In this document: in pieces, positions 160 to 55,462 of the stretch
Layout: each line of letters opens with the position of its first letter
Numbering within the stretch: the first letter of the stretch is position 1
NCBI RefSeq assembly: GCF_035084215.1
Contig: NC_090344.1
Location: forward strand, 52,948,001 to 53,012,000
Source: Heptranchias perlo
Taxonomy: Eukaryota
DNA: 64,000 bases
Direction of reading: 5' to 3'
Notes under the pieces: generated by a model
What the model saw: only the letters and a program-made list of their open reading frames with translations
Database searches by the model: none
Told to the model about the DNA's origin: nothing
Made by a program: the position numbers and the translations under genes

Positions 160-650
160 AAGGGGAACAGATAGGGTGGATAGAGAGAAACTATTTCCAC
201 TGGTTGAGGATTCTAGGAGCAGGGGGCACAGTCTAAAAATTAGAGCCAGACCTTTCAGGAGTGAGATTAGAAAACATTTCTACACACAAAGGGTGGTAGA
301 AGTTTGGAACTCTCTTCCGCAAACGGCAATTGATGCTAGCTCAATTGCTAAATTTAAATCTGAGATAGATAGCTTTTTGGCAACCAAAGGTATTTTTTTA
401 AAAATTTTTTTTATTCGTTCATGGGATGTGGGCGTTGCTGGCAAGGCCGGCATTTATTGCCCATCCCTAATTGCCCTCGAGAAGGTGGTGGTGAGCCGCC
501 TTCTTGAACCGCTGCAGTCCGTGTGGTGACGGTTAAGGAATATGGGCCACAGGCAGGTATATGGAGTTAGATCACAGATCAGCCATGATCTTATCAAATG
601 GCAGAGCAGGCACGAGGGGCTGAATGGCCTACTCCTGTCCCTATGTTCCT
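160..650 (+). mobile_element. 5'-truncated CR1 3' end inserted antisense into the same family
   Basis: DRVDREKLFPL..RGHSLKI..FYTQRVV C-terminal motif, 3' cctatgttcct tail, aagt at both junctions. Confidence 0.85.
393..533 (-). mobile_element. 3' fragment of the tRNA-headed LINE family
   Basis: Reverse complement matches 11270-11400 (cggactgcagcggttcaagaagg...gcccacatcc...gaacgaat + A-rich tail). Confidence 0.9.
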
Positions 651-3648
651 AAGTCCGGGTATCACTCTAGTAAACCTACACTGCACTCCCTCCAAGGCCA
701 ATATGTCCTTCCGAAGGTGCGGTGCCCAGAACTGCTCACAGTACTCCAGGTGCGGTCTAACCAGGGTTTTGTATAGCTGCAGCATAACTTCTGCCCCCTT
801 GTACTCCAGTCCTCTGGATATAAAGGCCAGCATTCCATTAGCCTTATTGATTATTTTCTGCACCTGTTCATGACACTTCAATGATCTATGTACCTGAACC
901 CCTAAGTCCCTTTGGATATCGACTATTTTTAACTTTTTACCATTTAGAAAGTACCCTGTTCTCTCCTTTTTTGATCCAAAGTGGATGACCTCACATTTGT
1001 CTACATTGAATTCCATTTGCCACAGTTTTGCCCATTCACCTAATCTATCAATATCGCTTTGTAATTTCATGTTTTCATCTACACTGCCTACAATGCCACC
1101 AATCTTTGTGTCATCGGCAAACTTAGATATGAGACTTTCTATGCCTTCATCTAAGTTGTTAATAAATATTGTGAATAATTGAGGCCCCAAGACAGATCCC
1201 TGCGGGACTCCACTAGTCACATCCTGCCAATGTGAGTACCTACCCATTATCCCTGCTCTCTGTCGCCTTTCGCTCAGCCAACTTCCCAACCAAGTCCGTA
1301 CTTTTCCCTCGATTCCATGGGCTTCTATCTTAGCTAACAGTCTCTTATGTGGAACTTTATCAATTGCCTTCTGGAAGTCCATATAAATAACATCCATTGA
1401 CATTCCCCTGTCCACTACTTTCGTCACCTCTTCAAAAAATTCAATCAGGTTTGTCAGGCACGACCTACCTTTCACAAATCCATGCTGGCTCTCTCTGATT
1501 AACTGAAAATTCTCGAGGTGTTCAGTCACCCTATCCTTAATTATAGACTCCAGCATTTTCCCCACAACAGATGTTAGGCTAACTGGTCTATAATTCCCTG
1601 GTTTCCCTCTCCTTTCTTAAAAAGCAGAGTGACATGTGCAATTTTCCAATCCAGAGGGACGGTTCCTGAATCTAGAGAACTTTGAAAGATTATAGTTAGG
1701 GCCTCTGCAATGTGCTCACCTACTTCCTTTAAAACCCTGGGATGGAAACCATCTGGTCCTGGGGATTTGTCACTCTTTAGTGCTATTATTTTCTTTGTTA
1801 CTGTTGCTTTACTTATGTTAATTTTATTGAGTCCCTGTCCCCGATTCAATATTAGTTTTCTTGGGATTTCCGGCACGCTATCCTCTTTTTCGACTGTAAA
1901 TACTGACGCAAAGTAATTGTTCAACATGTCCGCCATTTCCCCATTGTCAATGACAATATCCCCACTTTCAGTTTTTAAGGGGCCAACACTGCTCCTGATA
2001 AACCAGTCACTATAGCATAACACGTCTGGTGCCTAAGACAAAGTGCTGGTCTGGAGTCCTTCATCATGCACAAGGAACCAGCCACATCCCAGCTCTGTTC
2101 AGTAGCACCGAGCAACGAATAAAACCACCCAGGGGGTTGCAGCACCAGCCTGACTGGCCAATCAACACCAGTCTGACTGGATAACTGTTTGGGAATAAGG
2201 GCCAAGAAACCTCGTCAAGCCAGATATTGGAATGTTAGCCCGGGAGAACCAGGCGAGATGGCAGCCAGTACCATGTAAATAATGATTGGAGACACAGGGA
2301 AATAAACATTGCGCTGCCTTTATTGTGTTTCGATAAATGCGTGGCCGATGTGACCAATTTACACATCTGACCCCTTCATACAGGTTAGGGCTCAGATTAC
2401 AGGCTGCATCTTTTCATGATTTAAGGCCCATAGAGTATTTGTATTTTGTTAGTCCATTTATTTGACGTTTGTTAAATTCTAATTCACCTGGCTCCACTCT
2501 ATCAGTTACAACGTGGCTAAAATGCAGGTGGTTAGAAATTATATTTATGGGCGATGTTGAATGTGAAATTGGATTCCGTCTGTACACTGGGTGTTGAGAT
2601 ACTGAGTCATGGACTCATTGGGACACTCTCTTGGACTGTCTTGTCCATCAGGAGCTGCATCTTTTATAATAACAGGTTGACTTCATCTGTGTCCAGGGTG
2701 TCCAAACTCTGGTGCGTGGAATTGAATGCAGTTATAACCCCTGTGGGGCCCCCAGTTCTATTTGCATTCCCTCACTGGTTTGTCCTGTTTGAATTTTGTG
2801 GGCCCAGAGGTTTGGGAAGGGCTGTTCTTGGCACTATCTCATCGATGGATAAATCCTAAATCCAAACACCAAGATCTCCCCTGAATGCCTTCCAATTGTT
2901 CATCCTAAGGTTCTAACAGGACACCCTGTATACTCTTCCTCATCTCAATCTCCACTGCCTTGAAATCATGCATCCTTACAACTACCCAACTCTTATTTTC
3001 CCATGACATTAGAAATGTGGAACTCCTCACCTCCCTCAATCTTCCCTCCAATCTACAGGATTTGAAAACCTAATCACCACTCCCTGATTAACATCAGCTT
3101 CTCCCCTACGCGCTTTAAAATTGGTGATGAGCTTTGGCCCTTCACCTTGATTTCTCATTAAAAAAGTTGTTGGGCCAAAGCAGAAGGACTATCTTACCCT
3201 ACACCCTGCTCCAAGGGGTGATTATCGCTGTAATGCTCTTTCCAGTTTCCATGGAACAATGTTTACAGGACTATGAATGAATGGGGTTCTTTGCACAATC
3301 CGATCATATGGGGTTTCACTGGCATAAAGATTTCTGTACAGTGTAAGATGGGTACGTGAAATGTTCACATGTCCACTTGAACCGTCAAAAGCACCCAGCA
3401 GAACAATTCTGGACTGTGTCCTTCCAAACTTGGGCTGTGAGCGTTCTAAGGCTGGGGTGAAGTACTGAAGTAATCTGAGGGGTTGAATTAAGAGCATCAC
3501 ACAAGAGTATATTCACTCAGCTTTAAAGTGTATTGGCGTTAGTGTGAATCTCCTTTTGCACGCTGGTCTGGTCAATAAGAGAAAATGACTGAACAGACTG
3601 TTACCATGACAACACACATGGCGGTGCATTTTGCCAATATGAAGAGTG

Positions 3649-4578
3649 CTAAGATTTCTCTTTGTTATGCATGCGCTGATGGACCGCGAGGGCTGACGAC
3701 TGGGTGAAGGACTTTGCGCACCGAGAACACCTGTACGGCTTGTCCCTCGTGTGAACACGCTGATGTTTAAAGGAATCTGACGAGGTGTTAAAGGTCTTTT
3801 CGCAGTGAGGACACTTATAAGGCTTCTCCCCTGTGTGAATCCGCTGGTGAACAGTCAGATATTGAGAATAAGTGAATGTCTTGTCACAATAGCAACACTT
3901 AAAAGGCCTTGCGCCTGTATGAATGCGCTCATGGGCTGTAAGAGAGGATAAAACAGTAAAAGTATTCTTACAATAGGAACACTTGAAGGGTTTGTCTCCC
4001 GTGTGGATGCGTTGGTGAAGGGTGAGGCATCGTGATTGTTTAAAGGTCTTTTCACAATATGAGCATTTAAAGGGACTCTCCTCCGTGTGACTACGTTGGT
4101 GTTTCAAGCAGTCTGAGGAGGTGGAAAAGGTCTTCTGACAGTCGGAGCACTTATAAGGCTTCTCCCCCGTGTGAATTCGCTGGTGGACTGTGAGATGCCA
4201 GGAATGAGTGAACGTCTTCTGACAGTGCGAGCATCTGAACGGCTTCTCGCCTGTGTGGATCCGCTGATGTTTCAGTAAGTAGGAAGATGTGGAAAAAGCC
4301 TTGCCGCAATCCAGGCACTTGTAAGGTTTCTCTCCTGTGTGGATTCGCTGATGGACTGTGAGCGAGGAGGACTGGGTGAAGCTTTTTCCACAATCAACGC
4401 ACTTGTACGGCCTCTCCCCAGTGTGATTGCGCTCATGTACTGTCAGAGACGAGGCCTGGGTGAATATCTTTTCGCAGTATGAGCATCGGTACAATTTCTT
4501 CCTGATGCAAATTTGGGGCTTTGGCAAGATGTGGCAGATGGAGGAGTTTGAATTCTGCTCTGTGCGCGGTTTCTCCAT
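3649..4578 (-). CDS. C2H2 zinc-finger protein, 10 tandem fingers, ~309 aa, single coding exon
   Basis: Ten CxxC-x12-HxxxH units with TGEKP-type linkers; minus-strand acceptor ttatttcacAG|ATTGAAGAGATG places the exon start at 4587 and ATG at 4578; intact frame. Confidence 0.9.
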   Translation of the reverse strand: MEKPRTEQNSNSSICHILPKPQICIRKKLYRCSYCEKIFTQASSLTVHERNHTGERPYKCVDCGKSFTQSSSLTVHQRIHTGEKPYKCLDCGKAFSTSSYLLKHQRIHTGEKPFRCSHCQKTFTHSWHLTVHQRIHTGEKPYKCSDCQKTFSTSSDCLKHQRSHTEESPFKCSYCEKTFKQSRCLTLHQRIHTGDKPFKCSYCKNTFTVLSSLTAHERIHTGARPFKCCYCDKTFTYSQYLTVHQRIHTGEKPYKCPHCEKTFNTSSDSFKHQRVHTRDKPYRCSRCAKSFTQSSALAVHQRMHNKEKS

Positions 4579-7770: not shown

Positions 7771-8061
7771 GGGGTCAGGGAGCTGGAGTTTAGGGGCCGC
7801 CCTGCCCATGAAGCCGGCTCAGGGGTCAGCTCCAGGCCTGTACCTGGGGTCACTCACTCTGGGAGCTCCCTCACCAGGGCGCCTTGGCCCAGGAGCAGCC
7901 CTTGGCCCAGGAGCAGCCCTTGGCCCAGGAGCAGCACTCTCCCCTCAGGGTCTTCATCCCTCAACCAACATCACCCACACACATTATCTGGTCATTTATC
8001 TCATTGCTGTTTGTGGGATCTTGCTGTGCGCGATTTGGCTGCTGTGTTTCCTACATTTAAT

Positions 8062-8150
8062 GGGTACGGTAGCATAGTGGTTATGTTACTGGACTAGTAA
8101 TCCAGAGACCTGGACTAAAATCCAGAATCATGAGTTCAAATCCCGCCACG
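8062..8150 (+). promoter_or_regulatory. tRNA-Thr(AGU)-like internal Pol III promoter at the LINE 5' end
   Basis: A box tagcatagtgg 8070-8080; anticodon-like arm ctgga-ctAGTaa-tccag 8089-8105; second similar arm 8110-8125; B box gagttcaaatc 8132-8142. Confidence 0.8.
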
Positions 8151-11100
8151 GCAGCTGGCGAATTTAAATTCAAATAATTAATTAAATTCAATTAATTAAA
8201 TATAAATCTGGAATTAAAATACTAGTATCAGTAATGATGGCCATGAAACTGCCGGATTGTCGTAAAAACCCATCTGGTTCACTAATGTCCTTTAGGGAAG
8301 GAAGCCTGCCGCCCTTACCCGGTCTGGCCTATATGTGACTCCAGACCCACAGCAATGTGGTTGATTCTTAATTGCCCTCTGAAATGGCCTAGCAAGCCAC
8401 TCAGTTGTAAAATCTCGCTACGAAAAGTCATAATAAGAATAAAACCGGACGGACCACCCGGCATCGGACCACTAGGCACCGGACACGACAACGGCAAAAC
8501 ACCAAGCCCAGTCGACCCTGCAAGGTCCTCCTTACTAACATCTGGGGACTTGTGCCAAAATTGGGAGAGCTGTCCCACAGACTAGTCAAGCAACAGCCTG
8601 ACATAGCCATACTCACAGAATCATACCTTTCAGCCAACGTCCCAGACTCTTCCATCACCATCCCTGGGTATGTCCTGTCCCACCGGCAGGACAGACCCAC
8701 CAGAGGTGGTGGTACAGTGATATACAGTCAGGAGGGAGTGGCCCTGGGAGTCCTCAGCATTGACTCTGGACCCCATGAAATCTCATGGCATCAGGTCAAA
8801 CATGGGCAAGGCAACCTCCTGCTGATTACCACCTACCGTCCTCCCTCAGCTGATGAATCAGTCCTCCTCCACGTTGAGCACCACTTGGAGGAAGCACTGA
8901 GGGTAGCAAGGGCACAAAATGTACTCTGGGTGGGGGACTTCAATGTCCATCACCAAGAGTGGCTCGGTAGCACCACTACTGACCGAGCTGGCCGAGTCCT
9001 GAAGGACATAGCTGCTAGACTGGGCCTGCGGCAGGTGGTGAGCGAACCAACACGAGGGAAAAACTTACTTGACCTCGTCCTCACCAATCTACCTGTCGCA
9101 AATGCATCTGTCCATGACAGTATTGGTAGGAGTGACCACCGCACAGTCCTCGTGGAGATGAAGTCCCGTCTTCGCACTGAGGACACCATCCAACGTGTTG
9201 TGTGGCACGACCACCGTGCTAAATGGGATAGATTCAGAACAGATCTAGCAGCTCAAAACTGGGCATCCATGAGGCGCTGTGGGCCATCAGCAGCAGCAGA
9301 ATTGTATTCCAGCACAATCTGTAACCTCATGGCCCGGCATATTCCTCACTCTACCATTACCAACAAGCCAGGGGATCAACCCTGGTTCAATGAGGAGTGT
9401 AGAAGAGCATGCCAGGAGCAGCACCAGGCGTACCGAAAAATGAGGTGCCAACCTGGTGAAGCTACAACTCAGGACGACATGCATGCTAAACAGTGGAAGC
9501 AACATGCTATAGACAGAGCTAAGCGATTCCACAACCAACGGATCAGATCAAAGCTCTGCAGTCCTGCCACATCCAGTCGTGAATGGTGGTGGACAATTAA
9601 ACAACTAACGGGAGGAGGAGGCTCTGCAAACATCCCCATCCTCAATGATGGCGGAGTCCAGCATGTGAGTGCAAAAGACAAGGCTGAAGCATTTGCAACC
9701 ATCTTCAGCCAGAAGTGCCGAGTGGATGATCCATCTCGGCCTCCTCCCGATATCCCCACCATCACGGAAGCCAGTCTTCGGCCAATTCGATTCACTCCAC
9801 GTGATATCAAGAAACGGCTGAGTGCACTGGATACAGCAAAGGCTATGGGCCCCGACAACATCCCAGCTGTAGTGCTGAAGTCTTGTGCTCCAGAACTAGC
9901 TGCGCCTCTCGCCAAGCTGTTCCAGTACAGCTACAACACTGGCATCTACCCGACAATGTGGAAAATTGCCCAGGTATGTCCTGTCCACAAAAAGCAGGAC
10001 AAATCCAATCCGGCCAATTACCGCCCCATCAGTCTACTCTCAATCATCAGCAAAGTGATGGAAGGTGTCGTCGACAGTGCTATCAAGCGGCACTTACTCA
10101 CCAATAACCTGCTCACCGATGCTCAGTTTGGGTTCCGCCAGGACCACTCGGCTCCAGACCTCATTACAGCCCTGGTCCAAACATTGACAAAAGAGCTGAA
10201 TTCCAGAAGTGAGGTGAGAGTGACTGCCCTTGACATCAAGGCAGCATTTGACCGAGTGTGGCACCAAGGAGCCCTAGTAAAATTGAAGTCAATGTAAATC
10301 AGGGGGAAAACTCTCCAGTGGCTGGAGTCATACCTAGCACAAAGGAAGATGGTAGTGGTTGTTGGAGGCCAATCATCTCAGCCCCAGGACATTGCTGCAG
10401 GAGTTCCTCAGGGCAGTGTCCGAGGCCCAACCATCTTCAGCTGCTTCATCAATTACCTTCCCTCCATCATAAGGTCAGAAATGGGGATGTTCGCTGATGA
10501 CTGCACAGTGTTCAGTTCCATTCGCAACCCCTCAAATAATGAAGCAGTCTGAGCCCACATGCAGCAAGACCTGGACAACATCCAGGCTTGGGCTCATAAG
10601 TGGCAAGTAACATTCGCGCCAGACAAGTGCCAGGCAATGACCATCTCCAACAAGAGAGAGTCTAACCACCTCCCCTTGACATTCAACGGCATTACCATCG
10701 CCGAATCCCCCACCATCAACATCCTGGGGGTCACCATTGACCAGAAACTTAACTGGACCAGCCATATAAATACTGTGGCTACGAGAGCAGGTCAGAGGCT
10801 GGGTATTCTGCGGCGAGTGACTCACCTCCTGACTCCCCAAAGCCTTTCCACCATCTACAAGGCACAAGTCAGGAGTGTGATGGAATACTCTCCACTTGCC
10901 TGGATGAGTGCAGCTCCAACAACACTCAAGAAGCTCGACACCATCCAAGATAAAGCAGCCCGCTTGATTGGCACCCCATCCACCACCCTAAACATTCACT
11001 CCCTTCACCACCGGCGCACTGTGGCTGCAGTGTGCACCATCCACAGAATGCACTGCAGCAACTCGCCAAGGCTTCTTCGACAGCACCTCCCAAACCCGCG

Positions 11101-11400
11101 ACCTCTACCACCTAGAAGGACAAGAGCAGCAGGTACATGGGAACAACACCACCTGCACGTTCCCCTCCAAGTCACACACCATCCCGACTTGGAAATATAT
11201 CGCCGCTCCTTCATCGTCGCCGGGTCAAAATCCTGGAACTCCCTTCCTAACAGCACTGTGGGAGAACCGTCATCACACGGACTGCAGCGGTTCAAGAAGG
11301 CGGCTCACCACCACCTTCTCAAGGGCAATTAGGGATGGGCAATAAATGCCGGCCTCGCCAGCGACGCCCACATCCCGTGAACGAATAATTTAAAAAAAAT
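8062..11400 (+). mobile_element. Full-length tRNA-headed single-ORF LINE (APE endonuclease + RT, CR1/L2-group-like), copy 1; two in-frame stops
   Basis: tRNA-like head; ORFs 8552..10297, 10349..10552 and 10559..11332 in one frame with NIWGL, LTES, YRPP, GDFN, LDL, SDH (APE) and GPDNI, YRPISL, QFGFR, AFDRV, PQGS, FADD (RT); A-rich tail; inserted in a DeuSINE. Confidence 0.95.
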
Positions 11401-12503: not shown

Positions 12504-13310
12504 ATGGATGAAGACTGTGTAACTGAAGATTACCGAGGACAAACTCCACAGACATCAAATTTCAGCAAGTCCCCCAGCATTTTACATCACTACAGAATTC
12601 AGGTCAGGGAGAGACCGTATAAGTGTACCCTTTGTGGGAAGAGCTTCACTCAGTCCTGGTCCCTGACAGTTCATCAGCGAATCCACACCGGAGAGAAACC
12701 GTTCAAATGCTGCAAGTGTGCAAAGACCTTTATTGACTCGTGGTCTCTCACACTTCACCAGCGTGTTCACACCGGAGAGAAACCATTCAAATGTTCCGAA
12801 TGTGCAAAAGCTTTCAGCAACTCTTCACACCTTTCAGTTCACCAGCGCATCCACACAGGAGTGAGACCGTATAAGTGTTTGGATTGTGGGAAAGCCTTTG
12901 TTCAATCTTCACAACTTTCATGCCACCAGCGGCTTCATACAGGGGAGAAGCCTTATAAGTGCCCTGAATGCGGACAAACCTTCACCCAGTCCTCATCCCT
13001 CACAGTTCACCAGCGCATTCACACCGGAGAGAAGCCTTTCAAGTGTTCTGAGTGTGAAAAGGCCTTTATCGAGTCATCACACCTGCTGCGTCACCAGCGG
13101 GTTCATACAGGGGAGAAGCCTTACAAGTGCAGCGATTGTGAGAAAGCTTTCATTAATTCATCATCTCTCACGGTACATCAGCGCATTCATACAGGGCAGA
13201 AACTCTTCAGATGTCCTGACTGTGAAAAGACCTTTATTAAATCGTGGCATCTTTTGCGCCATCTGACCATCCATACACGGACACTTTCCCCCCAAGTGAC
13301 TGGGGTCTGA
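12504..13310 (+). CDS. C2H2 zinc-finger protein, 8 tandem fingers, ~268 aa, single coding exon
   Basis: Eight C2H2 units with TGEKP linkers; acceptor ttcacAG at 12483-12484, ATG at 12504 (gtcATGg); intact frame. Confidence 0.9.
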
Positions 13311-20100: not shown

Positions 20101-21627
20101 CCTTACTTCCTTTCTTGCTCTCTTACTTACTTCCTTGCTATCTTTCTTGATCTCTTACTTCCTTGCTTTCTTTCTTGATCTCTTGCTTTCTTTCTTGATC
20201 TCTTGCTTTCTTTCTTGATCTCTTGCTTTCTTTCTTGCTTTCTCGCTTGCTTGCTTTCTTGCTTGCTTTTTTGCTTACTTTCTTGTTTGCTTGCTTTCTT
20301 TCTTGCTTTTTTGCTTACTTTCTTGTTTGCTTGCTTTCTTTCTTGCTTTCTTTCTTTCTTGCATTGCTGCAGGAGTTCCTCAGGGCAGTGTCCTAGGCCC
20401 AACCATCTTCAGCTGCTTCATCAATGACCTTCCCTCCATCATAAGGTCAGAAATGGGGATGTTCGCTGATGGTTGCACAGTATTCAGTTCCATTCGCAAC
20501 CCCTCAAATAATGAAGCAGTCCGAGCCCGCATGCAGCAAGACCTGGACAACATCCAGGCTTGGGCTGATAAGTGGCAAGTAACATTCACACCAGACAAGT
20601 GCCAGGCAATGACCATCTCCAAGAGTCTAACCACCTCCCCATGATATTCAACGGCATTACCATCGCCGAATCCCCCACCATCAACATCCTGGGGGTCACT
20701 ATTGACCAGAAACTTAACTGGACCAGCCATATAAATACTGTGGCTACAAGAGCAGGTCAGAGGCTGGGTATTCTGCAACGAGTGACTCACCTCCTGACTC
20801 CCCAAAGCCTTTCCACTATCTACAAGGCACAAGTCAGGAGTGAGATGGAATACTCTCCACTTGTATGGATGAGTGCAGCTCCAACAACACTCAAGAAGCT
20901 CGACACCATCCAGGACAAAGCAGCCCGCTTGATTGGCACCCCATCCACCACCCTAAACATTCACTCCCTTCACTACCGGCGCACTGTGGCTGCAGTGTAT
21001 ACCATCCACAGGCTTCTTCGACAGCAGCTCCCAAACCCGCGACCTCTACCATCTAGAAGGACAAGAGCAGCAGGCACATGGGAACAGCACCACCTGCACG
21101 TTCCCCTCCAAGTCACACACCACCCCGACTTGGAAATATATCGCCGTTCCTTCATCGTCGCTGGGTCAAAATCCTGGAACTCCCTTCCTAACAGCACTGT
21201 GGGAGAACCTTCAGTACACGGACTGCAGCGGTTCAAGAAGGCGACTCACCACCACCTTCTCAAGGGCAATTAGGGATGGGCAATAAATGCCGGCCTCGCC
21301 AGCGACGCCCACATCCCATGAACGAATTTTTAAAAATGCTTTCTTTCTTCCTTCCTTTCTTTCTTGCTTGCTTTCTTGCTTGCTTTCTTTGTCACTTGCT
21401 TGCTTTCTTTGTAGCTTGCTTTCTTTGTAGCTTGCTTTCTTTGTTGCTTGCTTCCTTGCTTGCTTGCTTCCTTTCTTGCTTGCTTCCTTTCTTTCTTGCT
21501 TGCTTCCTTTCTTTCTTGCTTGCTTCCTTTCTTGCTTGCTTGCTTTCTTCCTTTCTTGCTTGCCTGCTTCCTTTCTTGCCTGCTTCCTTTCTTGTTTTTT
21601 TGCTTGCTTTCTTGCTTGCTTTCTTCT
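17115..21627. repeat. Polypyrimidine compound microsatellite (tttc/ttgc/ctct variants) with N gaps 17158-17305 and 19012-19175
   Basis: Directly visible; all F/L/S/C-rich and K/R/E-rich ORFs here are artefacts. Confidence 0.97.
20361..21336 (+). mobile_element. 5'-truncated copy of the tRNA-headed LINE inside the microsatellite
   Basis: [14 protein letters not shown] through the 3' UTR, near-identical to 10390-11395. Confidence 0.93.
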
Positions 21628-28365: not shown

Positions 28366-28496
28366 TGGTATCTCATATATGAATGAAAGCTTAGCACAGT
28401 GAAAAAACAACCTGCTCAAGAAATGATTCCACAGGACATGGGTGGAGGACGAGGCTAGACGTTGCCATTCACCTCAGGTTCAAACCAGCCCCGGCT

Positions 28497-28897
28497 GTCC
28501 GGGGAGTGTTTGATGGGACAGTGTAGAGGGAGCTTTACTCTGTTTCTAACCCGTGCTGTACCTGCCCTGGGAGTGTTTGATGGGACAGTGTGGAGGGAGC
28601 TTTACTCTGTATCTAACCCGTGCTGTACCTGCCCTGGGAGTGTTTGATGGGACAGTGTAGAAGAAGCTTTATTCTGTATCTAACCTGTGCTGTACCTGCC
28701 CTGGGAATGTTTGATGGAACAGCGTAAAAGAGGCTTTACTCTGTATCTAATCCTTGCTGTACCTGTCCTGGGAGTGTTTGATGGGACAGTATGGAGGGAG
28801 CTTTACTCTGTATCTAACCTGTGCTGTACTTTCCCTGGGAGTGTTTGATGGGACAGTGTAGAAGAAGCTTTACTCGATATCTAACCCATGCTGTATC
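28497..28897. repeat. Six-unit array of the 67-bp satellite in LGI3 intron 1
   Basis: Same unit and orientation as 55465-64000. Confidence 0.95.
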
Positions 28898-28904
28898 AGA
28901 GGAC

Positions 28905-36903: not shown

Positions 36904-39900
36904 GGGTACAGTAGCATAGTGGTTATGTTACTGGATGAGTAATCCAGAGGCCCGGATTAATAATCCGGAGTCATGAGTTCAAATCCTGCCACGGCAGCTG
37001 GGGAATTTAAATTCAATTAATTAAATTCAATTAATTAAAAATAAAAATCTGGAATTAAAATACCAGGATCAGTAATGGTGACCATGAAACTACTGGATTG
37101 TCGTAAAAACCCATCTGGTTCACTAATGTCCTTTAGGGAAGGAAACCTGCTGTCTTTACCCGGTCTGGCCTATATGTGACTCCAGACCCACAGCAATGTG
37201 GTTGATTCTTAATTGCCCTCTGAAATGGCCTAACAAGCCACTGAGTTGTAAAATCTTGCTAAAAAAAAGTCATAATAAGAATAAAACCGGACGGACCACC
37301 CGGCATCAGAGACGACAAAGGCAAACCAAACCCAGTCGACCCTGCAAAGTCCTTCTCACTAACATCTGGGGACTTGTGCCAAAATTGGGAGAGCTGTCCC
37401 ACAGACTAGTCAAGCAACAGCCTGACATAGCCATTCTCACAGAATCATACCTTTCAGCCAACGTCCCAGACTCTTCTATCACCATCCCTGGGTATGTCCT
37501 GTCCCAACAGCAGGACAGACCCACCAGAGGTGGCCGTACAGTGATATACAGTCAGGAGGGAGTGGCCCTGGGAGTCCTCAACATTGACTCTGAACCCCAT
37601 GAAATCTCATGGCATCAGGTCAAACATGGGCAAGGAAACCTCCTGCTGATTACCACCTACCGTCCTCCCTCAGCTGATGAATCAGTCCTCTTCCATGTTC
37701 AACAGCACTTGGAGGAAGCACTGAGGGTAGCAAGGGCACAGAATGTACTCTGGGTGGGGGACTTCAATGTCCATCACCAAGAGTGGCTCGGTAGCACCAC
37801 TACTGACCGACCTAGCCGAGTCCTGAAGGACATAGCTGCCAGACTGGGCCTGCAGCAGGTGGTGAGCGAACCAACACGAGGGAAAAACTTACTTGACCTC
37901 GTCCTCACCAATCCACCTGTCGCAAATGCATCTGTCCATGACAGTATCGGTAGGAGTGACCACCGCACAGTCCTCATGGAGACGAAGTCCCGTCTTCGCA
38001 CTGAGGACACCATCCAACATGTTGCGTGGCACTACCACCGTGCTAAATGGGATAGATTCAGAACAGATCCAGCAGCTCAAAACTGGGCATCCAAGAGGCG
38101 CTGTGGGCCATCAGCAGCAGCAGAATTGCATTCCAGCACAATCTGTAACCTCATGGCCCGGCATATTCCTCACTCTACCATTACCAACAAACCGTGGGAT
38201 CAACCCTGGTTCAATGAGGAGTATAGAAGAGCATGCCAGGAGCAGCACCAGGCGTACCTAAAAGTGAGGTCCCAACCTGGTGAAGCTACAACTCAGGACT
38301 ACATGCATGTTAAACAGTGGAAGCAACATGCTATAGACAGAGCGAAGCGATTCCACAACCAACGGATCAAATCAAAGCTCTGCAGTCCTGCCACATCCAG
38401 TCGTGAATTAAACAACCAACGGGAGGAGGAGGCTCTGCAAACATCCCCATCCTCAATGATGGCGGTGTCCAGCATGTGAGTGCAAAAGACAAGGCTGAAG
38501 TGTTTGCAACCATCTTCAGCCAGAAGTGCCGAGTGGATGATCCATCTCAGCCTCCTCCCGATATCCCCACCATCACAGATGCCAGTATTCAGCCAATTCG
38601 ATTCACTCCACGTGATATCAAGAAACGGCTGAGTGCACTGGATACAGCAAAGGCTTTGGGCCCCGACAACATCCCGGCTGTTGTGCTGAAGACTTGTGTT
38701 CCAGAACTAGCTGCGCCTCTAGCCAAACTGTTCCAGTACAGCTACAGCACTGGCATCTACCCAACAATGTGGAAAATTGCCCAGGAATGTCCTGTCCACA
38801 AAAAGCAGGACAAATCCAATCCGGCCAATTACCACCCCATCAGTCCACTTTCAATCATCAGCAAAGTGATGGAAGGTGTCGTCGACAGTGCAATCAAGCG
38901 GCACTTACTCACTAATAACCTGCTCACCGATGCTCAGTTTGGGTTCCGCCAGGACCACTCGGCTCCAGACCTCATTACAGCCTTGGTCCAAACATGAACA
39001 AAAGAGCTGAATTCCAGAGGTGAGGTGAGAGTGACTGCCCTTGACATCAAGGCAGCATTTGACTGAGTGTGGCACCAAGGAGCCCAAGTAAAATTGAAGT
39101 CAATGTAAATCAGGGGGAAAACTCTCCAGTGACTGGAGTCATACCTGGCACAAAGGAAGATGGTAGTGGTTGTTGGAGGCCAATCTTCTCAGCCCCAGGA
39201 CATTGCTGCAGGAGTTCCTCAGGGCAGTGTCCGAGGCCCAACCATCTTCAGCTGCTTCATCAATGACCTTCCCTCCATCATAAGATCAGAAATGGGCATG
39301 CTCGCTGATGATTGCACAGTGTTCAGTTCCATTCGCAACCCCTCAAATAATGAAGCAGTCCGAGCCCGCATGCAGCAAGACCTGGACAACATCCAGGCTT
39401 GGGCTGATAAGTGGCAAGTAACATTCACACCAGACAAGTGCCAGGCAATGACCATCTCCAACAAGAGAGTGTCTAACCACCTCCCCTTGACATTCAATGG
39501 CATTACCATCGCCGAATCCCCCACCATCAACATCGTAGGTGTCACCATTAACCAGAAACTTCACAGTACTTATATGGCTGGTCCAGTTGCTACAAGAGCA
39601 GGTCAGAGGCCGGGTATTCTGCGGCGACTGACTCACCTCCTGACTCGCCAAAGCCTTTCCACCATCTCCAAGGCACAAGTCAGGAGTGTGATGGAATACT
39701 CTCCACTTGCCTGGTTGAGTGCAGCTCCAACAACACTCAAGAAGCTCGACACTATCCAGGACAAAGCAGCCCGCTTGATTGGCACCCCATCTACCACCCT
39801 AAACATTCACTCCCTTCACCCCCGGTGCACAGTGGCTGCAGTGCGTACCATCCACAGGATGCACTGCAGCAACTCGCCAAGGCTTCTTCGACAGCACCTC

Positions 39901-40204
39901 CCAAACACGTGACCTCTACCACCTAGAAGGACCAGAGCAGCAGGTACATGGGAACAACACCACCTGCACGTTCCCCTCCAAGTCACACACCATCCTGACT
40001 TGGAAATATATCACCCTTCCTTCATCGTTGCTGGGTCAAAATCCTGGAACTCCCTTCCTAACAGCACTGTGGGAGAACCATCACCACACGGACTGTCGCG
40101 GTTCAAGAAGGCAGCTCACCACCACCTTCTCAAGGGCAATTAGGGATGGGCAATAAATGCCGGCCTCGCCAGCAATGCCCACCTCCCATCAACAAAAATA
40201 AAAT
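36904..40204 (+). mobile_element. Full-length tRNA-headed single-ORF LINE, copy 2 (disabled)
   Basis: Same head, APE and RT as copy 1; several stops and a deletion near 38405. Confidence 0.95.
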
Positions 40205-40814
40205 AATTGTCATTGACAATGGGGAAATGGCAGACATGTTGAATAATTACTTTGCGTCAGTATTTACAGTGCAAAAGGAGGATAGCATGCCGGAAATCCC
40301 AAGAAAACTAATATTGAATTGGGGACAGGGACTCAATAAAATTAACATAATTAAAACAACAGTAATGAAGAAAATAATAGCACGAAAGAGTGACAAATCC
40401 CCAGGACCAGATGGTTTCCATCCCAGGGTTTTAAAGGAAGTAGGTGAGCACATTGCAGAGGCCCTAACTATAATCTTTCAAAGTTCTCTAGATTCAAGAA
40501 CTGTCCCTCTGGATTGGAAAATTGCACATGTCACTCTGCTTTTTAAGAAAGGAGAGAGAGGGAAACCAGGGAATTATAGACCAGTTAGCCTAACATCTGT
40601 TGTGGGGAAAATGCTGGAGTCTATAATTAAGGACAGGGTGACTGAACACCTCGAGAATTTTCAGTTAATCAGAGAGAGCCAGCATGGATTTGTGAAAGGT
40701 AGGTCGTGCCTGACAAACCTGATTGAATTTTTTGAAGAGGTGACGAAGGTAGTGGACAGGGGAATGTCAATGGATGTTATTTATATGGATTTCCAGAAGG
40801 CATTTGATAAAGTC

Positions 40815-40942
40815 CCACCACACGGACTGCAGCGGTTCAAGAAGGCGGCTCACCACCACCTTCTCGAGGGCAATTAGGGATGGGCAATAAATGCTGGCCT
40901 CGCCAGCGACGCCCACATCCCGTGAACGAATAAAAAAAAAAG
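40815..40942 (+). mobile_element. 3' fragment of the tRNA-headed LINE
   Basis: cacacggactgcagcgg..gaacgaat + A run, inside CR1 RT. Confidence 0.9.
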
Positions 40943-41169
40943 AAGCCCATGGAATTGAGGGAAAAGTACGGACTTGGTTAGGAAGTTGGCTGAGCGAAAG
41001 GCGACAGAGAGTAGGGATAATGGGTAAGTATTCACATTGGCAGGATGTGATTAGTGGAGTCCTGCAGGGATCTGTCTTGGGGCCTCAATTATTCACAATA
41101 TTTCTTAACGACTTAGATGAAGGCATAGAAAGTTTCATATCTAAGTTTGCCGATGACACAAAGATTGGT

Positions 41170-41390
41170 CATGATGTGGAGATGCCGGTGATGGACTGGG
41201 GTGGACAAATGTAAGGAATCTTCCAACACCGGGTTATAGTCCAACAAATTTATTTTAAAATCACAAGCTTTCGGAGATTATCCCCTGATTATCTCCTGTC
41301 ATTCACCTGACGAAGGGGATAATCTCCGAAAGCTTGTGATTTTAAAATAAATTTGTTGGACTATAACCTGGTGTTGTAAGATTCCTTACA
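41170..41390. mobile_element. Hairpin Penelope pLTR insertion with hammerhead motif (41303-41339, +)
   Basis: 77-bp inverted arms 41210-41286 / 41314-41390; aagattggt duplicated at the flanks. Confidence 0.9.
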
Positions 41391-42354
41391 AAGATTGGTG
41401 GCATTGTAAGCAGTGTAGATGAAAACATAAAATTACAAAGGGATATTGATAGATTAGATGAATGGGCAAAACTGTGGCAAATGGAATTCAATGCAGACAA
41501 ATGTGAGGTCATCCACTTTGGATCAAAAAAGGATAGAACAGGGTACTTTCTAAAAGATAAAAAGTTAAAAACAGTGGATGTCCAAAGGGACTTAGGGGTT
41601 CAGGTCCATAGATCATTGAAGTGTCATGAACAGGTACAGAAAATAATCAATAAGGCTAATGGAATGCTGGCCTTTATATCTAGAGGACTGGAGTACAAGG
41701 GGGCAGAAGTTATGCTGCAGCTATACAAAACCCTGGTTAGACCGCACCCGGAGTACTGTGAGCAGTTCTGGGCACTGCACCTTCGGAAGGACATATTGGC
41801 CTTGGAGGGAGTGCAGCATAGGTTTACTAGAATGTTAACCGGACTTCAAGGGTTAAGTTACGAGGAGAGATTATACAAATTGGGGTTGTATTCTCTGGAG
41901 TTTAGAAGGTTAAGGGGTGATCTGATCGAAGCTTATAAGATATTAAGGGGAACGGATAGGGTGGATAGAGAGAAACTATTTCCGCTGGTTGGGGATTCTA
42001 GGAGTAGGGGGCACAGTCTAAAAATTAGAGCCAGACCTTTCAGGAGTGAGATTAGAAAACATTTCTACACACAAAGGGTGGTAGAAGTTTGGAACTCTCT
42101 TCCGCAAACGGCAATTGATACTAGCTCAATTGCTAAATTTAAATCTGATATAGATAGCTTTTTGGCAACCAATGGTATTCAGGGACATGGGCCAAAGGCA
42201 GGTATATGGAGTTCGATCACAGATCAGCCATGACCTTATCAAATGGCGGAGCAGGCACGAGGGGCTGAATGGCCTACTCCTGTTCCTATGTTCCTATGAC
42301 TCTGTCTCACTGCTGCATGACTATGATGTCGAAGGTGATTAACTCATCTGCTCT

Positions 42355-45300
42355 CCTGCAGGAGGAGACCATTCAGCCACTCGAGCCTGTTCAGCCATTC
42401 AGTTTGATCGTGGCTGATCTGTACCTCAACTCCATTTACCCGCCTTTGCTCCATATCCCTTGATTTTTTAAAATTCGTTCATGGGATGTGGGCGTCGCTG
42501 GCGAGGCCGGCATTTATTGCCCATCCCTAATTGCCCTTGAGAAGGTGGTGGTGAGCCGCCTTCTTGAACCGCTGTAGTCCGTGTGGTGAAGGTTCTCCCA
42601 CAGTGCTGTTAGGAAGGGAGTTCTAGGATTTTGACCCAGCGACGATGAAGGAACGGCGATATATTTCCAAGTCGGGATGGTGTGTGACTTGGAGGGGAAC
42701 GTGCAGGTGGTGTTGTTCCCATGTGCCTCCTGTTATTATCCTTCTAGGTGGTAGAGGTCGTTGGTTTGGGAGGTGCTGTCGAAGAAGCCTTGGCGAGTTG
42801 CTGCAGTGCATCCTGTGGATGGTACACACTGCAGCCACTGTGCGACGATGGTGAAGGGAGTGAATGTTTCGGGTGGTGGATGGGGTGCCAATCAAGCGGG
42901 CTGCTTTATCCTGGATGTTGTCGAGCTTCTTGAGTGTTGTTGGAGCTGCACTCATCCAGGCAAGTGGAGAGTATTCCATCACACTCCTGACTTGTGCCTT
43001 GTAGATGGTAGGAAGGCTTTGGGGAGTCAGGAGGTGAGTCACTCGCCGCAAAATACCCAGCCTCTGACCTACTCTTGTAGCCACAGTATTTATATGGCTG
43101 GTCCAGTTAGGTTTCTGGTCAATGGTGACCCCCAGGATGTTGATGGTGGGGGATTCGGCGTTGGTAATGCCATTGAATGTCAAGGGGAGGTGGTTAGACT
43201 CTCTCTTGTTGGAGATGGTCATTGCCGGCACTTGTCTGGTGCGAATGTTACTTGCCACTTATCAGCCCAAGCCTGGATGCTGTCCAGGTCTTGCTGCATG
43301 CGGGCTCGGACTGCTTCATTATTTGAGGGGTTGCAAATGGAACTGAACACTGCAATCATCAGCAAACATCCCCATTTCTGACCTTACGATGGAGGGAAGG
43401 TCATTGATGAAGCAGCTGAAGATGGTTGGGCCTGGGACACTGCCTTGAGGAACTCCTGCAGCAACGTCCGGGGGCTGAGATGATTGGCCTCCAACAACCA
43501 CTACCATCTTCCTTTGCGCTGGGTATGACTCCGGCCACTGGAGAGTTTTCCCCCTGATTCCCATTGACTTTAATTTTACTGGGGCTCCTTCGTGCCAAAC
43601 TCGGTCAAATGCTGCCTTGATATCAAGGGCAGTCTCTCTCATCTCTGGAATTCAGCTCTTTTGTCCATGTTTGGAACCAAGGCTGTAATGAGGACTGGAG
43701 CCTGGTGGTCCTGGCGGAACCCAAACTGAGCATTGGTGAGCAGGTTATTGGTGAGTAAGTGCCGCTTGATAGCACTGTCGACGACACCTTCCATCACTTT
43801 GAGAGTAGACTGATGGGGCAGTAAATGGCCGGATTGGATTTGTCCTGCTTTTTGTGGACAGGACATACCTGGGCAATTTTCCACATTGTCTGGTAGATGC
43901 CAGTGTTGTAGCTGTACTGGAACAGCTTGGCTAGAGGCGCAGCTAGCTCTGGAGCACAAGTCTTCAACACTACAGCCGGGATGCTATCGGGGCCCCTGGC
44001 CTTTGCTGTATCCAGTGCACTCAGTCGTTTCTTGATATCACGTGGAGTGAATCAAATTGGCTGAATACTGGCTTCTGTGATGGTGGGGATATCGGGAGGA
44101 GGCTGAGATGGATCATCCACTCGGCACTTCTGGTTGAAGATGGTTGCAAACGCTTCAGCCTTGTCTTTTGCACTCATGTGCTGGACTCCGCCATCATTGA
44201 GGATGGGGATGTTTGCAGAGCCTCCTCCTCCCGTTAGTTGTTTAATTGTCCACCACCATTCACGACTGGATGTGGCAACTGCAGAGCTTTCATCTGATCC
44301 GTTGGTTGTGGAATCGCTTCGCTCTGTCTGTAGCATGTTGCTTCCAATGTTTAGCATGCAGTCCTGAGTTGTAGCTTCACCAGGTTGGCACCTCATTTTT
44401 AGGTGCGCCTTGTGCTGCTCCTGGCATGCTCTTCTACACTCCTCATTGAACCAGGGTTGATCCCCTGGCTTGTTGGTAATGGTAGAGTGAGGAATATGCC
44501 GGGCCATGAGGTTACAGATTGTGCTGGAATGCAATTCTGCTGCTGCTGATGGCCCACAGCGTCTCATGGATGCCCAGTTTTGAGCTGCTGGATCTGATCT
44601 GAATCTATCCCATTTAGCACGGTGGTAGTGCCACACAACATGTTGGATGGTGTCCTCAGTGCGAAGACGGGACTTCATCTCCACGAGGACTGTGCGGTGG
44701 TCATTCCTACCAATACTGTCGTGGACAGATGCATTTGCGACAGGTAGATTGGTGAGGACGAGGTCAAGTAAGTTTTTCCCTCGTGTTGGTTCGCTCACCA
44801 CCTGCCGCAGGCCCAATCTGGCAGCTATGTCCTTCAGGACTCGGCCAGCTCGGTCAGTAGTGGTGCTACCGAGCCACTCTTGGTGATGGACATTGAAGTC
44901 CCCCACCCAGAGTACATTCTGTGCCCTTGCTACCCTCAGTGCTTCCTCCAAGTGGTGTTCAACATGGAGGAGGACTGATTCATCAGCAGGAGGTTTTCTT
45001 GCCCATGTTTGACCTGATGCCATGAGATTTCAAGGGGTCCAGAGTCAATGTTGAGGACTCCCAGGGCCACTGTATATCACTCCACCGCTGGTGGGTCTGT
45101 CCTGGCCGGTGGGACAGGACATCCCCAGGGATGGTGATGGAAGAGTCTGGGACATTGGCTGAAAGGTATGATTCTGTGAGTATGGCTGTGTCAGGCTGTT
45201 GCTTGACTCGTCTATGGGACAGCTCTCCCAATTTTGGCATAAGTCCCCAGATGTTAGTGAGGAGGACTTTGCAGGGTCAACTGGGCTTGGTTTGCCTTTG

Positions 45301-46900
45301 TCGTGTCCGATGCCAGCTGGTCCGTCCGGTTTTATTCTCATTTTGACTTTTTTTAAGCGAGAATTTTACAACTCAGTGGCTTGCTCGGCCATTTCAGAGG
45401 GCAGTTAAGAATCAACCACATTACAGTTGGTCTGGAGTCACATATCGGCCAGAATAGATAAGGACGGCAGGTTTCCTTCCCTCAAGGACATTCGTGAATC
45501 AGATGGGTTTTTTTGACAATCCAGTCGTTTCATGGCCACCGTTATTGATACTAGTATTTTAATTCTAGATTTTATTTAATTAATTGAATTTAAATTCCCC
45601 AGCTGCCGTGGCGGGATTTGAACTCATAACTCGCAGATTGTTAGTCTCGGCCTCTGGATTACTGGTCCAGTAACATAACCACTATGCTACCGTACCCTTG
45701 ATACCCTGATCTAACAAAAATCTTAACTATCTCAGTCTTCAAAGCTCCAACTGACCCCCAGTCTCAGCTTTTTGGGGGAGAGAGTTCCAGATTTGCACTA
45801 CCCTTTGTGTGAAGAAGTGCTTCCTGACATCACACCTGAACGGCCTAGCTCTAATTTTAAGGTTGTGCCCCCTTTTTCTGAACTCCCCCCACCAGAGGAA
45901 ATAGTTTCTCTCTTTCTACCCTATCAAATCCTTTAATCATTATTGAATCATAGAAAGGTTACAGCACGGATGGAGGCCATTCGGCCCGTCGAGTCACTCC
46001 CCCCGCCCTTTCCCTGTAGCCCTGCAATTTTTTTCCCTTCAAGTACTTATCCAGTTCCCTCTTGAAAGCCATGATTGAATCTGCCTCCACCACCCCCTCG
46101 GGCAGTGCATTCCAGATCCTAACCACTCACTGCGTAAAAAAGTTTTGCCTCATGTCACCTTTGGTTCTTTTGCCAATCACCTTAAATCTATGTCCTCTGG
46201 TTCTTGACCCTTCCACCAATTTGAACAGTTTCTCTCTATCTACTCTGTCTGGACCCTTCATGATTTTGAATACCTCTATCAAATCTCCTCTCAACCTTCT
46301 CTGCTCTAAGGAGAACAACCCCAGCTTCTCCAGTCTATCCATGTAACTAAAGTCCTTCCTCCCTGGAATCATTCTAGTAAATCTCTTTTGCACTCTCTCT
46401 AAGGCCTTCACATCCTTCTGAAAATTATTTTAAACACCTCAATTAAATCACCCCTTAATTTTCTGTACTCAAGGGAATCCAAACCAAGTTTATGTAACCT
46501 GTCCTCGTAATTTAACCTTCAGCCCTGGTATCATTCTAGTGAATCTGCGCTGCACCCCCTCCAAGGCCAATATATCCTTCCTGAGGTGCGGTACCCAGAA
46601 ATGAACGCAGTATCTCCAGATGGGGTCTAACCAGAGCTCAGTACAGCTATACCTTCCACCCCTTTGCATTTCAGCCCCCTTGAGATAAAGGCCAACATTC
46701 CATTCGCCTTTTAAATTACTTGTGTCCCTGTTCCTCAGTGATCTGTGTACATGGACCCCAAAATCCATTTGCTCCTTCACGGCTCCTATCTCACCATTCA
46801 GAATATATTCCAATTTGACCTTCTTGGATACAAAGTGGATGACCTTTGACTTCCCCACATTGAACTCCATCTGCCACAGTTTTGCCCACTCACTTAATCT
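42355..46900 (-). mobile_element. Minus-strand CR1 3' fragments (42355-42463, 45698-46900) hosting LINE copy 3 and another CR1 tail
   Basis: ORFs 46127..46411 and 46490..46870 with CR1 C-terminal motifs; cccttgat flanks copy 3. Confidence 0.8.
42464..45697 (-). mobile_element. Full-length tRNA-headed single-ORF LINE, copy 3 (degenerate)
   Basis: Reverse complement begins gggtacggtagcatagtgg at 45697; APE/RT ORF pieces; cccttgat at 42457-42464 and 45695-45702. Confidence 0.95.
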
Positions 46901-47339: not shown

Positions 47340-50020
47340 GTCTGCTTTTGTGGTGTTGGATCAGGATAAGTGTTGCCCAGGACACCAAGAGAACTCCCTG
47401 CCCTTGTTCGAATAGTGCCTTGGGACCTTTTAAATCCATCTGAACAGATGGCAGGGTCTCCGTTTAACATCTCATTCAAAATACAGCACCACCGACCATA
47501 CAACACTCCCTCAGTACTGTACCTCTGACCAAACAACACTCCCTCAGTACTGTACCTCTGACCAAACAACACTCCCTCAGTACAGCACCTCTGACCAAAC
47601 AACACTCCCTCAGTACTGTACCTCTGACCAAACAACACTCCCTCAGTACTGTACCTCTGACCAAACAACACTCCCTCAGTACTGTACCTCTGACCAAACA
47701 ACACTCCCTCAGTACTGTACCTCTGACCAAACAACACTCCCTCAGTACTGTACCTCTGACCAAACAACACTCCCTCAGTACTGTACCTCTGACCAAACAA
47801 CACTCCCTCAGTACTGTACCTCTGACCAAACAACACTCCCTCAGTACTGTACCTCTGACCAAACAACACTCCCTCAGTACTGTACCTCTGACCAAACAAC
47901 ACTCCCTCAGTACTGTACCTCTGACCAAACAACACTCCCTCAGTACTGTACCTCTGACCAAACAACACTCCCTCAGTACTGTACCTCTGACCAAACAACA
48001 CTCCCTCAGTACTGTACCTCTGACCAAACAACACTCCCTCAGTACTGTACCTCTGACCAAACAACACTCCCTCAGTACTGTACCTCTGACCAAACAACAC
48101 TCCCTCAGTACTGTACCTCTGACCAAACAACACTCCCTCAGTACTGTACCTCTGACCAAACAACACTCCCTCAGTACTGTACCTCTGACCAAACAACACT
48201 CCCTCAGTACTGTACCTCTGACCAAACAACACTCCCTCAGTACTGTACCTCTGACCAAACAACACTCCCTCAGTACAGCACCTCTGACCAAACAACACTC
48301 CCTCAGTACTGTACCTCTGACCAAACAACACTCCCTCAGTACTGTACCTCTGACCAAACAACACATCCTCAGTACTGTACCTCTGACCAAACAACACTCC
48401 CTCAGTACAGCACCTCTGACCAAACAACACTCCCTCAGTACTGTACCTCTGACCAAACAACACTCCCTCAGTACAGCACCTCTGACCAAACAACACTCCC
48501 TCAGTACAGCACCTCTGACCAAACAACACTCCCTCAGTACTGTACCTCTGACCAAACAACACTCCCTCAGTACTGTACCTCTGACCAAACAACACTCCCT
48601 CAGTACTGTACCTCTGACCAAACAACACTCCCTCAGTACTGTACCTCTGACCAAACAACACTCCCTCAGTACAGCACCTCTGACCAAACAACACTCCCTC
48701 AGTACAGCACCACCGACCATACAACACTCCCTCAGTACTGTACCTCTGACCAAACAACACTCCCTCAGTACAGCACCACCGACCATACAACACTCCCTCA
48801 GTACTGTACCTCTGACCAAACAACACTCCCTCAGTACAGCACCTCTGACCAAACAACACTCCCTCAGTACAGCACCACCGACCATACAACACTCCCTCAG
48901 TACTGTACCTCTGACCAAACAACACTCCCTCAGTACAGCACCACCGACCATACAACACTCCCTCAGTACTGTACCTCTGACCAAACAACACTCCCTCAGT
49001 ACTGTACCTCTGACCAAACAACACTCCCTCAGTACAGCACCTCTGACCAAACAACACTCCCTCAGTACTGTACCTCTGACCAAACAACACTCCCTCAGTA
49101 CTGTACCTCTGACCAAACAACACATCCTCAGTACTGTACCTCTGACCAAACAACACTCCCTCAGTACAGCACCTCTGACCAAACAACACTCCCTCAGTAC
49201 TGTACCTCTGACCAAACAACACTCCCTCAGTACTGTACCTCTGACCAAACAACACTCCCTCAGTACAGCACCTCTGACCAAACAACACTCCCTCAGTACA
49301 GCACCTCTGACCAAACAACACTCCCTCAGTACTGTACCTCTGACCAAACAACACTCCCTCAGTACTGTACCTCTGACCAAACAACACTCCCTCAGTACTG
49401 TACCTCTGACCATACAAGACTCAGTACTGTACCTCTGACCAAACAACACTCCCTCAGTACTGTACCTCTGACCATACAAGACTCAGTACTGTACTCCCAA
49501 CAGTACAAGACTCCCTTAGTATAGCACCTCTGACCAAACAACACTCCCTCAGTACTGTACCTCTGACCAAACAACACTCCCTCAGTACTGTACCTCTGAC
49601 CAAACAACACTCCCTCAGTACTGTACCCCTGACCAAACAACACTCCCTCAGTACTGTACCTCTGACCAAACAACACTCCCTCTACTGTACCTCTGACCAA
49701 ACAATACTCCCTCAGTACAGCACCTCTGACCAAACAACACTCCCTCAGTACTGTACCTCTGACCAAACAACACTCCCTCTACTGTACCTCTGACCAAACA
49801 ACACTCCCTCAGTACTGTACCTCTGACCAAACAACACTCCCTCTACTGTACCTCTGATCATGCAACGCTCCCTCAGTACGTCATGTCCAACAGTGCAGTG
49901 CTTCCTCAATAGTGCACTGGAGTGTCAGTCTCCATTATGTGCTTCAGTCCTGGAGTGGGGCTCAACACCAAACCTGACTCAAGACGTAAGAGTGGTACCT
50001 ACTGAGCCAAACTGACAGGA
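47340..50020 (-). mobile_element. DeuSINE copy whose interior expanded into a minisatellite
   Basis: 47340-47490 and 49870-50020 match consecutive parts of the SINE at 6250-6475 plus the tRNA head. Confidence 0.75.
47483..49880. repeat. 33-bp minisatellite, ~72 copies
   Basis: Unit caacactccctcagtactgtacctctgaccaaa; 11-aa periodicity in the ORF track. Confidence 0.98.
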
Positions 50021-55185: not shown

Positions 55186-55462
55186 GTCTGCATGTAATTC
55201 GACAAGTGTGAAACTCTCCAGAAATGTTGACAGTTTCGATGTTGATTGGCTTTGTGCATTCCTCTGCATCAGTCTGCCATTTCAGGGAATCAATGCCAAA
55301 ATGTGAGACAGGCTTTTTGAGTTCTCTCTCTTCTAAACATTAATCCCTTCAGGACTGCAGTGCTATTTTACTGAATTCAGCATGAGAATATACAGTGAGG
55401 CAGAATGATTAATGGAAGATCAGGAGTCAGCATCAAGCTGCAACTTAATTTAAAAGTCAATA

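Follow-up and report, generated by a model that had tools for sequence, protein, structure and literature searches.

The analysed stretch of Heptranchias perlo DNA (64,000 nucleotides, called the window in the following) contains three full-length copies of a retrotransposon that combines a tRNA-derived head with a deficit of T-runs on the sense strand and the loss of the start AUG. We assigned the copies to an elasmobranch Zenon family, i.e. a LINE of the CR1 group with a single APE+RT frame and an A-tail. Head, T-run deficit and lost AUG coincide on one lineage; since all copies belong to it, the comparison with other LINEs rests on one evolutionary event. Judged from the sequences, we lean towards a reading in which the head would recruit Pol III, the T-poor strand would permit read-through and the uncapped RNA would be translated without an AUG.

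In the corresponding replication cycle TFIIIC would bind the internal boxes, such that every full-length insertion would bring its own promoter. With the sense strand purged of T-runs, Pol III could read through the 3.3-kb element and stop at a T-run in the flanking DNA. Translation of this uncapped RNA would begin at a non-AUG codon where the leader ends, and the element protein would bind the 3' tail and produce a new copy by target-primed reverse transcription. Internally deleted forms that keep head, leader and tail would be carried along as SINE-like passengers. In human cells Pol III transcripts retrotranspose without ORF1p, according to the accessible text of PMC2666806. Such ORF1-free retrotransposition is compatible with the proposed cycle but is not evidence for it, because all Zenon elements lack ORF1. 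The missing ORF1, being a trait of all Zenon elements in the accessible part of PMC13343379, was thus dropped as support for Pol III.

The three copies are 90–94% identical to each other from end to end and their flanks bear no likeness to each other, which confirms the initial annotation in that they are independent full-length insertions into different targets (Table 1). The annotation had further described one APE+RT frame without ORF1. Pfam indeed found APE followed by RT and nothing more, while the frames of all window copies turned out to be broken. Intact frames elsewhere in the genome comprise about 970 aa with APE and RT (973 aa from stop to stop).

Table 1. Positions of the Zenon copies in the window and of the parts of copy 1.
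Feature	Position	Strand	Remarks
Copy 1, tRNA-headed Zenon LINE, full-length	8062..11400	+	frame broken by two stops
Copy 2, full-length	36904..40204	+	93.6% identical to copy 1; broken frame; no T4
Copy 3, full-length	42464..45697	-	91.8% identical to copy 1; broken frame; one private T4 at 43050-43053
5'-truncated copy (final 1 kb)	20362..21336	+	
3'-end fragment, same Zenon family	40816..40941	+	
Second 3'-end fragment, same Zenon family	405-534	-	
tRNA-derived head, copy 1	8062..8150	+	A box 8070-8080, B box 8132-8143
Head arms, copy 1	8089-8105; 8110-8125	+	anticodon-like arm; duplicated arm
Leader, copy 1	8151..8410	+	common to SINE-like deletion derivatives; conserved in sharks and a ray
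Predicted hairpin, 7-nt loop with central AGC	8379..8404	+	AGC complementary to in-frame GCT 8417-8419; candidate translation-start element
Single APE+RT frame, copy 1	8411..11332	+	basic N-terminal extension; 973 aa stop to stop when intact
Domains in the frame, copy 1	about 8537-9148; about 9992-10738	+	APE; RT
3' UTR, copy 1	11333..11400	+	AATAAA within 11338-11348; short A tail; common to SINE-like derivatives

The window holds other repeats as well. A CR1-like insertion lies in pieces beside Zenon tails (40206-42300 and 405-1957); these pieces are 94–97% alike, indicating nested or rearranged insertions. An extended array of tandem repeats (period about 67 nt) occupies 55460-64000, with a detached 400-nt piece at 28494-28899. 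GC-rich tandem repeats (33/66-nt period), in which several frames are open, are found at 47466-49879, and two related repeat arrays lie in opposite orientation at 3650-4470 and 12600-13280.

Zenon elements of sharks and rays, without ORF1, with a poly-A tail and more than 84% alike in five species, were described in 2026 (PMC13343379, accessible part). The window family gave exact motif matches in the published Zenon rows of that source and matched them by eye over the first 400 nt. That the family might be undescribed, which the initial annotation could not confirm, does not hold for the family itself; its head architecture is not remarked on in the main text of PMC13343379, which gave no match for tRNA, promoter or polymerase III. 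The family is thus already catalogued, and the head, the T-run deficit and the missing AUG are unremarked in the literature searchable here.

The exact 29 nt across the junction of leader and frame occurred 3,324 times in the source genome, compared to 0 occurrences of the reversed control. In 20 arbitrarily placed genome stretches the family accounted for 4,637 of 200,000 bases, and its share of the genome is about 2%. When loci were picked by their head, 36/39 ran on into the frame and 3/39 were internally deleted; an open frame of at least 938 aa was present in 8/38 of the head-picked loci reaching the tail. Searching the genome with the protein of an invertebrate relative gave 49 matches, and no inner stop interrupted 40 of them. 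Target-site duplications were mostly absent (candidates of at least 6 nt in 5/46 copies). The poly-A tail had a median length of about 9 A (95 tails).

The closest proteins are 35–42% identical to that of the element, mostly about 930 aa long and in many cases encoded on contigs of 3.2–3.9 kb. In a midpoint-rooted RT tree, which held no named Zenon reference and comprised 131 of 168 sequences (the 37 with an RT match of less than 300 aa were omitted), the element protein was placed among compact entries of mostly 930–990 aa, including sponge, crab and moth. The two further LINE families sampled from this genome were placed apart. A second CR1-like family of the genome (L240-L259, seed L083:7038-8201), which served as control, is very young, with copies about 99% alike, intact frames and normal T-runs. 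Relatives from metagenomes came from an alignment-based scan, a single-protein scan having given nothing. Searches aimed at separate old subfamilies yielded young copies for the most part, and no complete old-subfamily frame was present among the older loci recovered. A shark protein entry named aldo-keto reductase (P0046) contains a piece that is 80% identical to the element protein, over 28% of it; this entry is probably a gene model that swallowed an element copy.

Pol III type 2 units carry an A box/B box consensus. A head with both boxes is present on all three window copies, as had been noticed initially, and the gap of 51 nt between the boxes in copy 1 is a workable spacing for a type 2 unit. 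Against the Rfam tRNA model the head reached 22.2 bits (E 0.042), which is under the gathering score of 29 bits. ARAGORN called no tRNA anywhere in the window. The head is tRNA-derived and not a tRNA. Older short elements, in which the duplicated arm is absent, scored 25–27.5 bits on the same model. For relatives ARAGORN gave 0/49 tRNA calls but is insensitive, since it misses the present head, too; a box-pair pattern was found as 1 pair in 72 loci, located inside a coding match, with many contigs stopping short of the element 5' end.

How regularly the element begins with the head was evaluated on 49 copies selected independently of it, 29 via endonuclease DNA and 20 taken from the 49 invertebrate-protein matches. 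Of these, 31 start at nt 1–15 and the remaining 18 are cut within the leader or at the frame start; no alternative 5' end occurred among the 49. Their upstream flanks contained one pair with a short match only. Contigs from three other organisms end loosely at base 8062 (1,059 and 745 in two public DNA runs), and the public-run contigs also carry joints from the leader end to the tail. In older copies that are 71–81% alike to copy 1 (L314, L351, L352), head or leader is joined to the frame start. The supplement of PMC13343379 gives 7 elasmobranch Zenon rows (consensus sequences of 5 species); compared by eye over the first 400 nt, all 7 begin with head and leader. The A box is kept in 7/7 of these rows and the B box has its canonical form in six, the imperfect B box of the stingray row counting against the Pol III reading; the spacer between the boxes varies and T4 is absent from the first 400 nt. 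Two hagfish rows and the coelacanth row of the same source, with orientation and completeness taken as published, show no such head at their start and contain T4+. The view that the head is an integral part of the element was therefore borne out by the common start, the truncation of all other copies and the lack of a rival 5' end; the comparison with other species supports it as a long-conserved 5' end.

A head of this kind could also belong to an ordinary Pol II LINE that captured a tRNA-derived 5' end, an explanation we consider rather doubtful. Head or leader would then act as Pol II promoter, or TFIIIC binding would only keep the chromatin open. The accessible text of PMC5786205 is in line with this explanation, as LINEs are generally taken there as Pol II units. 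Sharks and a ray have, however, kept both boxes despite a variable spacer, and the element 5' end lies 8 nt ahead of the A box, as where a tRNA or SINE begins, which argues against a Pol II unit.

Among 39 older loci picked by the hairpin followed by GCTA, most join leader nt 359–365 to the tail at varied points (about 3186–3247), and a handful run on into the frame. In a short type of even greater age, nt 318 is joined to 3261. Derivatives that keep the first codons must come from the headed LINE by deletion. The joints indicate that internal deletions repeatedly yield SINE-like derivatives of the headed LINE; none of the copies examined shows capture of a SINE by the LINE. The head may have come first from a tRNA or from a SINE, both origins being possible. 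An old and abundant tRNA-headed SINE-like family of about 300–350 nt (L092, L183, L290-L309) shares head, leader and tail and matched no named SINE.

Runs of T were also seen in the tails: T4+ was present in 14/74 tails versus a background of 7.5% (P 0.001), and 8/95 tails open with T4 or longer. While T grows, the total of T and A stays near 10. A role of the tail T-runs as built-in terminator was set aside, since a constant T + A total looks like A-to-T conversion. Such a change of A-runs into T(n)A(m) of constant total length is found in tails (e.g. window 11385-11400) as well as in the old leaders of L314, L315, L324 and L351.

Within the element bodies, runs of T4 or longer on the sense strand had been counted by eye as 0, 0 and 1 in the three copies. 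The recount gave the same numbers, and the run in copy 3 is indeed a private C>T, copy 1 having C at this position. A4+ runs are common on the sense strand as claimed (20 per copy), and the neighbouring CR1s are rich in sense TTTT: the CR1-like control family of the window, for which 'HER1-like' was a first label only, contains 1.6–3.7 T4/kb in 11 scored frames. Of 46 young full-length copies, 39 are free of T4 and in this respect conform to a type 2 Pol III unit without internal T4+; each of the other 7 carries a single T4, and no two of these coincide in position. Four older headed copies with a common T5 do not conform. The 8 intact copies contain no T4 in 7 cases and 1 in one case.

Shuffling of the base composition gave 4.2–4.6 expected T4, compared to which zero T4 is significant (P 0.006–0.017). 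Codon-preserving shuffles expect only 1.8–2.1 for the 7 T4-free intact copies (P 0.07–0.12) and 1.8–2.5 for all 8 intact copies (P 0.07–0.23), so that T4 alone is weak. The T4 depletion that was to exceed codon-preserving shuffles was thus not confirmed, as the absence of T4 alone is not significant (P about 0.1). For T3 a pronounced deficit was obtained, with 4–7 per intact copy (n=8) versus 11–14 expected (P 0.0005–0.008); TTT was counted 5 times versus 17.5 expected, i.e. 0.29 observed/expected. Among 67 controls (65 relatives plus two further LINE families from this genome) the lowest ratio was 0.65 and the median 1.00, and by z-score one control equals the element. At synonymous sites the use of T drops with the length of the run that it creates (148/470, 47/223, 5/56 and 0/6, i.e. 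31%, 21%, 9% and 0). No comparable fall was seen for runs of C, A or G or in the two other LINE families of the genome. Isolated T3 is almost inactive as terminator of human Pol III, while T4 and T5 are efficient and context matters (PMC3141230, accessible text). The strongest statistic is hence indirect.

The metagenome relatives numbered 80, of which 8 were too short and were dropped; the closest invertebrate relatives (P0002-P0009) were not among them. All 72 that could be scored contain at least 2 T4 (2–57 per frame). Their T content is 0.22–0.36 versus 0.19–0.20 for the element, and 7/22 metagenome relatives in the tree fall within the compact group. In agreement with the initial annotation, the T-run deficit is specific to the headed lineage among the LINEs tested. 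Stretches of 5 nt with 4 T occur 3 times in the element frame versus 18–56 times in 11 controls, and a second measure of degenerate T clusters gave 2 versus 11–45 in 11 controls; compared to codon shuffles the degenerate clusters are not significant (P 0.07–0.26).

Older material provided a mixed picture. In 15 old decayed segments 8 T4 were found versus 22.9 expected from composition, and no T4 column is common to the old fragments. The T5 of the four older headed copies lies between A residues about 25–35 nt 3' of the B box; L314 and L351 are of the LINE type, L315 and L324 are deleted, and other copies of the same age lack the T5. The old headed copy L314/L330 has 3 further T4 in 946 nt, none of them common to other copies. 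The leader T5 indicates either that the lineage moved with a canonical terminator or that T5 originated recurrently from an A-run as in the tails.

The protein contains less Leu than all 73 homologues and less Phe than 72, with Tyr at the low end. Low usage of T-rich codons across the protein fits a general avoidance of U. For the Pol II LINE introduced above, T-poverty would be due either to such avoidance, driven by RNA surveillance or by splicing or polyadenylation signals, or to the composition of the lineage. The joint depression of T, Leu, Phe and Tyr, the lack of significance for T4 alone and the T5 common to older headed copies all favour this explanation; it is weakened by the T3 deficit, whose size is not reached in the two same-genome LINE families or in the 65 relatives.

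The third trait of the lineage concerns the start of translation. An ATG first appears in the frame near aa 250, where the endonuclease domain ends. Ahead of the first endonuclease motif, an in-frame Met was found in 1/43 copies versus 31/33 relatives whose frame starts inside the contig, including all four compact-group relatives among the 33. Where copies share indels in the basic N-terminal extension, the lengths are multiples of three in 7/7 cases as aligned (about 3–4 events, with repeats favouring such lengths), compared to 1/10 in the leader. The lost AUG fits an uncapped RNA, as the head and the T-poor strand would, and is left unexplained by a Pol II LINE.

A candidate for a non-AUG start is the GCT triplet after the leader, which by eye shares the reading frame of the downstream sequence in four published species, though not in the dogfish row. 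It comes after the predicted hairpin with the complementary loop AGC, an arrangement that was noticed post hoc. Shuffled sequences fold just as stably (z -0.2), older copies have one extra paired stem position and the visible pairing between loop and codon amounts to 3–4 bp only. Rfam IRES models gave no match to 8000-8600 at E up to 10. A competing start would be the in-frame ATG at element nt 323, which is followed by one or two stops and would require re-initiation or read-through. A hypervariable T in the hairpin loop was considered as mark of RNA modification and rejected, T in CTA/TAG being hypermutable in all three LINE families. In these families (L011-L079, L200-L289) the mutation rate of T in TpA, chiefly in CTA/TAG, is several times that of other T, and many of the changes are transversions; this is a mutational hot spot of the host.

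A far-reaching version of the Pol III reading, in which an uncapped 3.3-kb mRNA made by Pol III only would start at GCU via a pseudoknot mimicking a tRNA anticodon and new SINEs would arise by internal deletion, appears quite unlikely to us. Labour could alternatively be split: Pol III would make the RNA that is copied, of full-length and deleted elements alike, and the protein would be supplied in trans from capped Pol II transcripts of lower abundance that begin in flanking DNA. Such a division would explain the fixed 5' end and the T-run deficit without cap-independent translation and agrees with the abundance of deleted derivatives mobilised in trans. We nevertheless regard it as very unlikely, given that many headed copies have kept the frame intact, a state that cis preference would sustain more readily, and that capped transcripts would still meet upstream AUGs without an in-frame start.

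According to the standard rule LINEs are Pol II units and SINEs are Pol III units, and we know of no established natural protein-coding Pol III transcripts of such length in vertebrates. A search of the literature outside subscription journals, Repbase and Dfam found no paper on an autonomous LINE driven by Pol III. If the preferred Pol III reading is true, a family making up the above share of the genome breaks this rule, a cap-independent non-AUG start is required, and the element offers a short, naturally occurring system for studying Pol III read-through and the translation of Pol III RNA. AUG-independent initiation is known from L1 ORF2. The intergenic IRES of dicistroviruses likewise functions without an in-frame AUG, with a loop pairing to a codon-like triplet beside the start; it forms a three-pseudoknot fold, whereas here only the triplet pairing is seen.

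Among known elements, elasmobranch Zenon (CarCar, HypSab, RhiTyp and ScyCan Zenon-1, SquAca Zenon-1/2/3; PMC13343379, accessible part) likewise comprises about 3.3 kb with APE+RT, no ORF1 and an A tail, and no difference in kind from the present element was seen there. Lepidopteran Zenon and its derivative Persaeus (accessible text of PMC6740152) resemble it as a single-ORF CR1-group element with poly-A and internally deleted offspring. Persaeus differs in that, according to this text, it carries the Zenon 5' UTR without tRNA homology and without a Pol III promoter. RTE-1_DAn and relatives are LINEs that were also noted to have tRNA-like sequence; they belong to the RTE clade, and the accessible text of PMC5786205 is silent on where this sequence lies, on a promoter role and on T-runs. 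The deleted derivatives have exactly the build of tRNA-derived SINEs (SINE2; Bov-tA, MetaSINEs, SacSINE1), i.e. head, body and LINE tail. MetaSINEs have a 66-bp Meta domain immediately behind the tRNA head; string searches and comparison by eye, the latter including bivalve and hagfish Meta sequences, found no likeness of the body to Meta or UCON3. SINE2 elements are non-coding and non-autonomous, which applies to the deleted derivatives only, whereas in the full-length element a head of the same type leads a 973-aa APE+RT frame. Internal deletion offers a one-step route from LINE to SINE.
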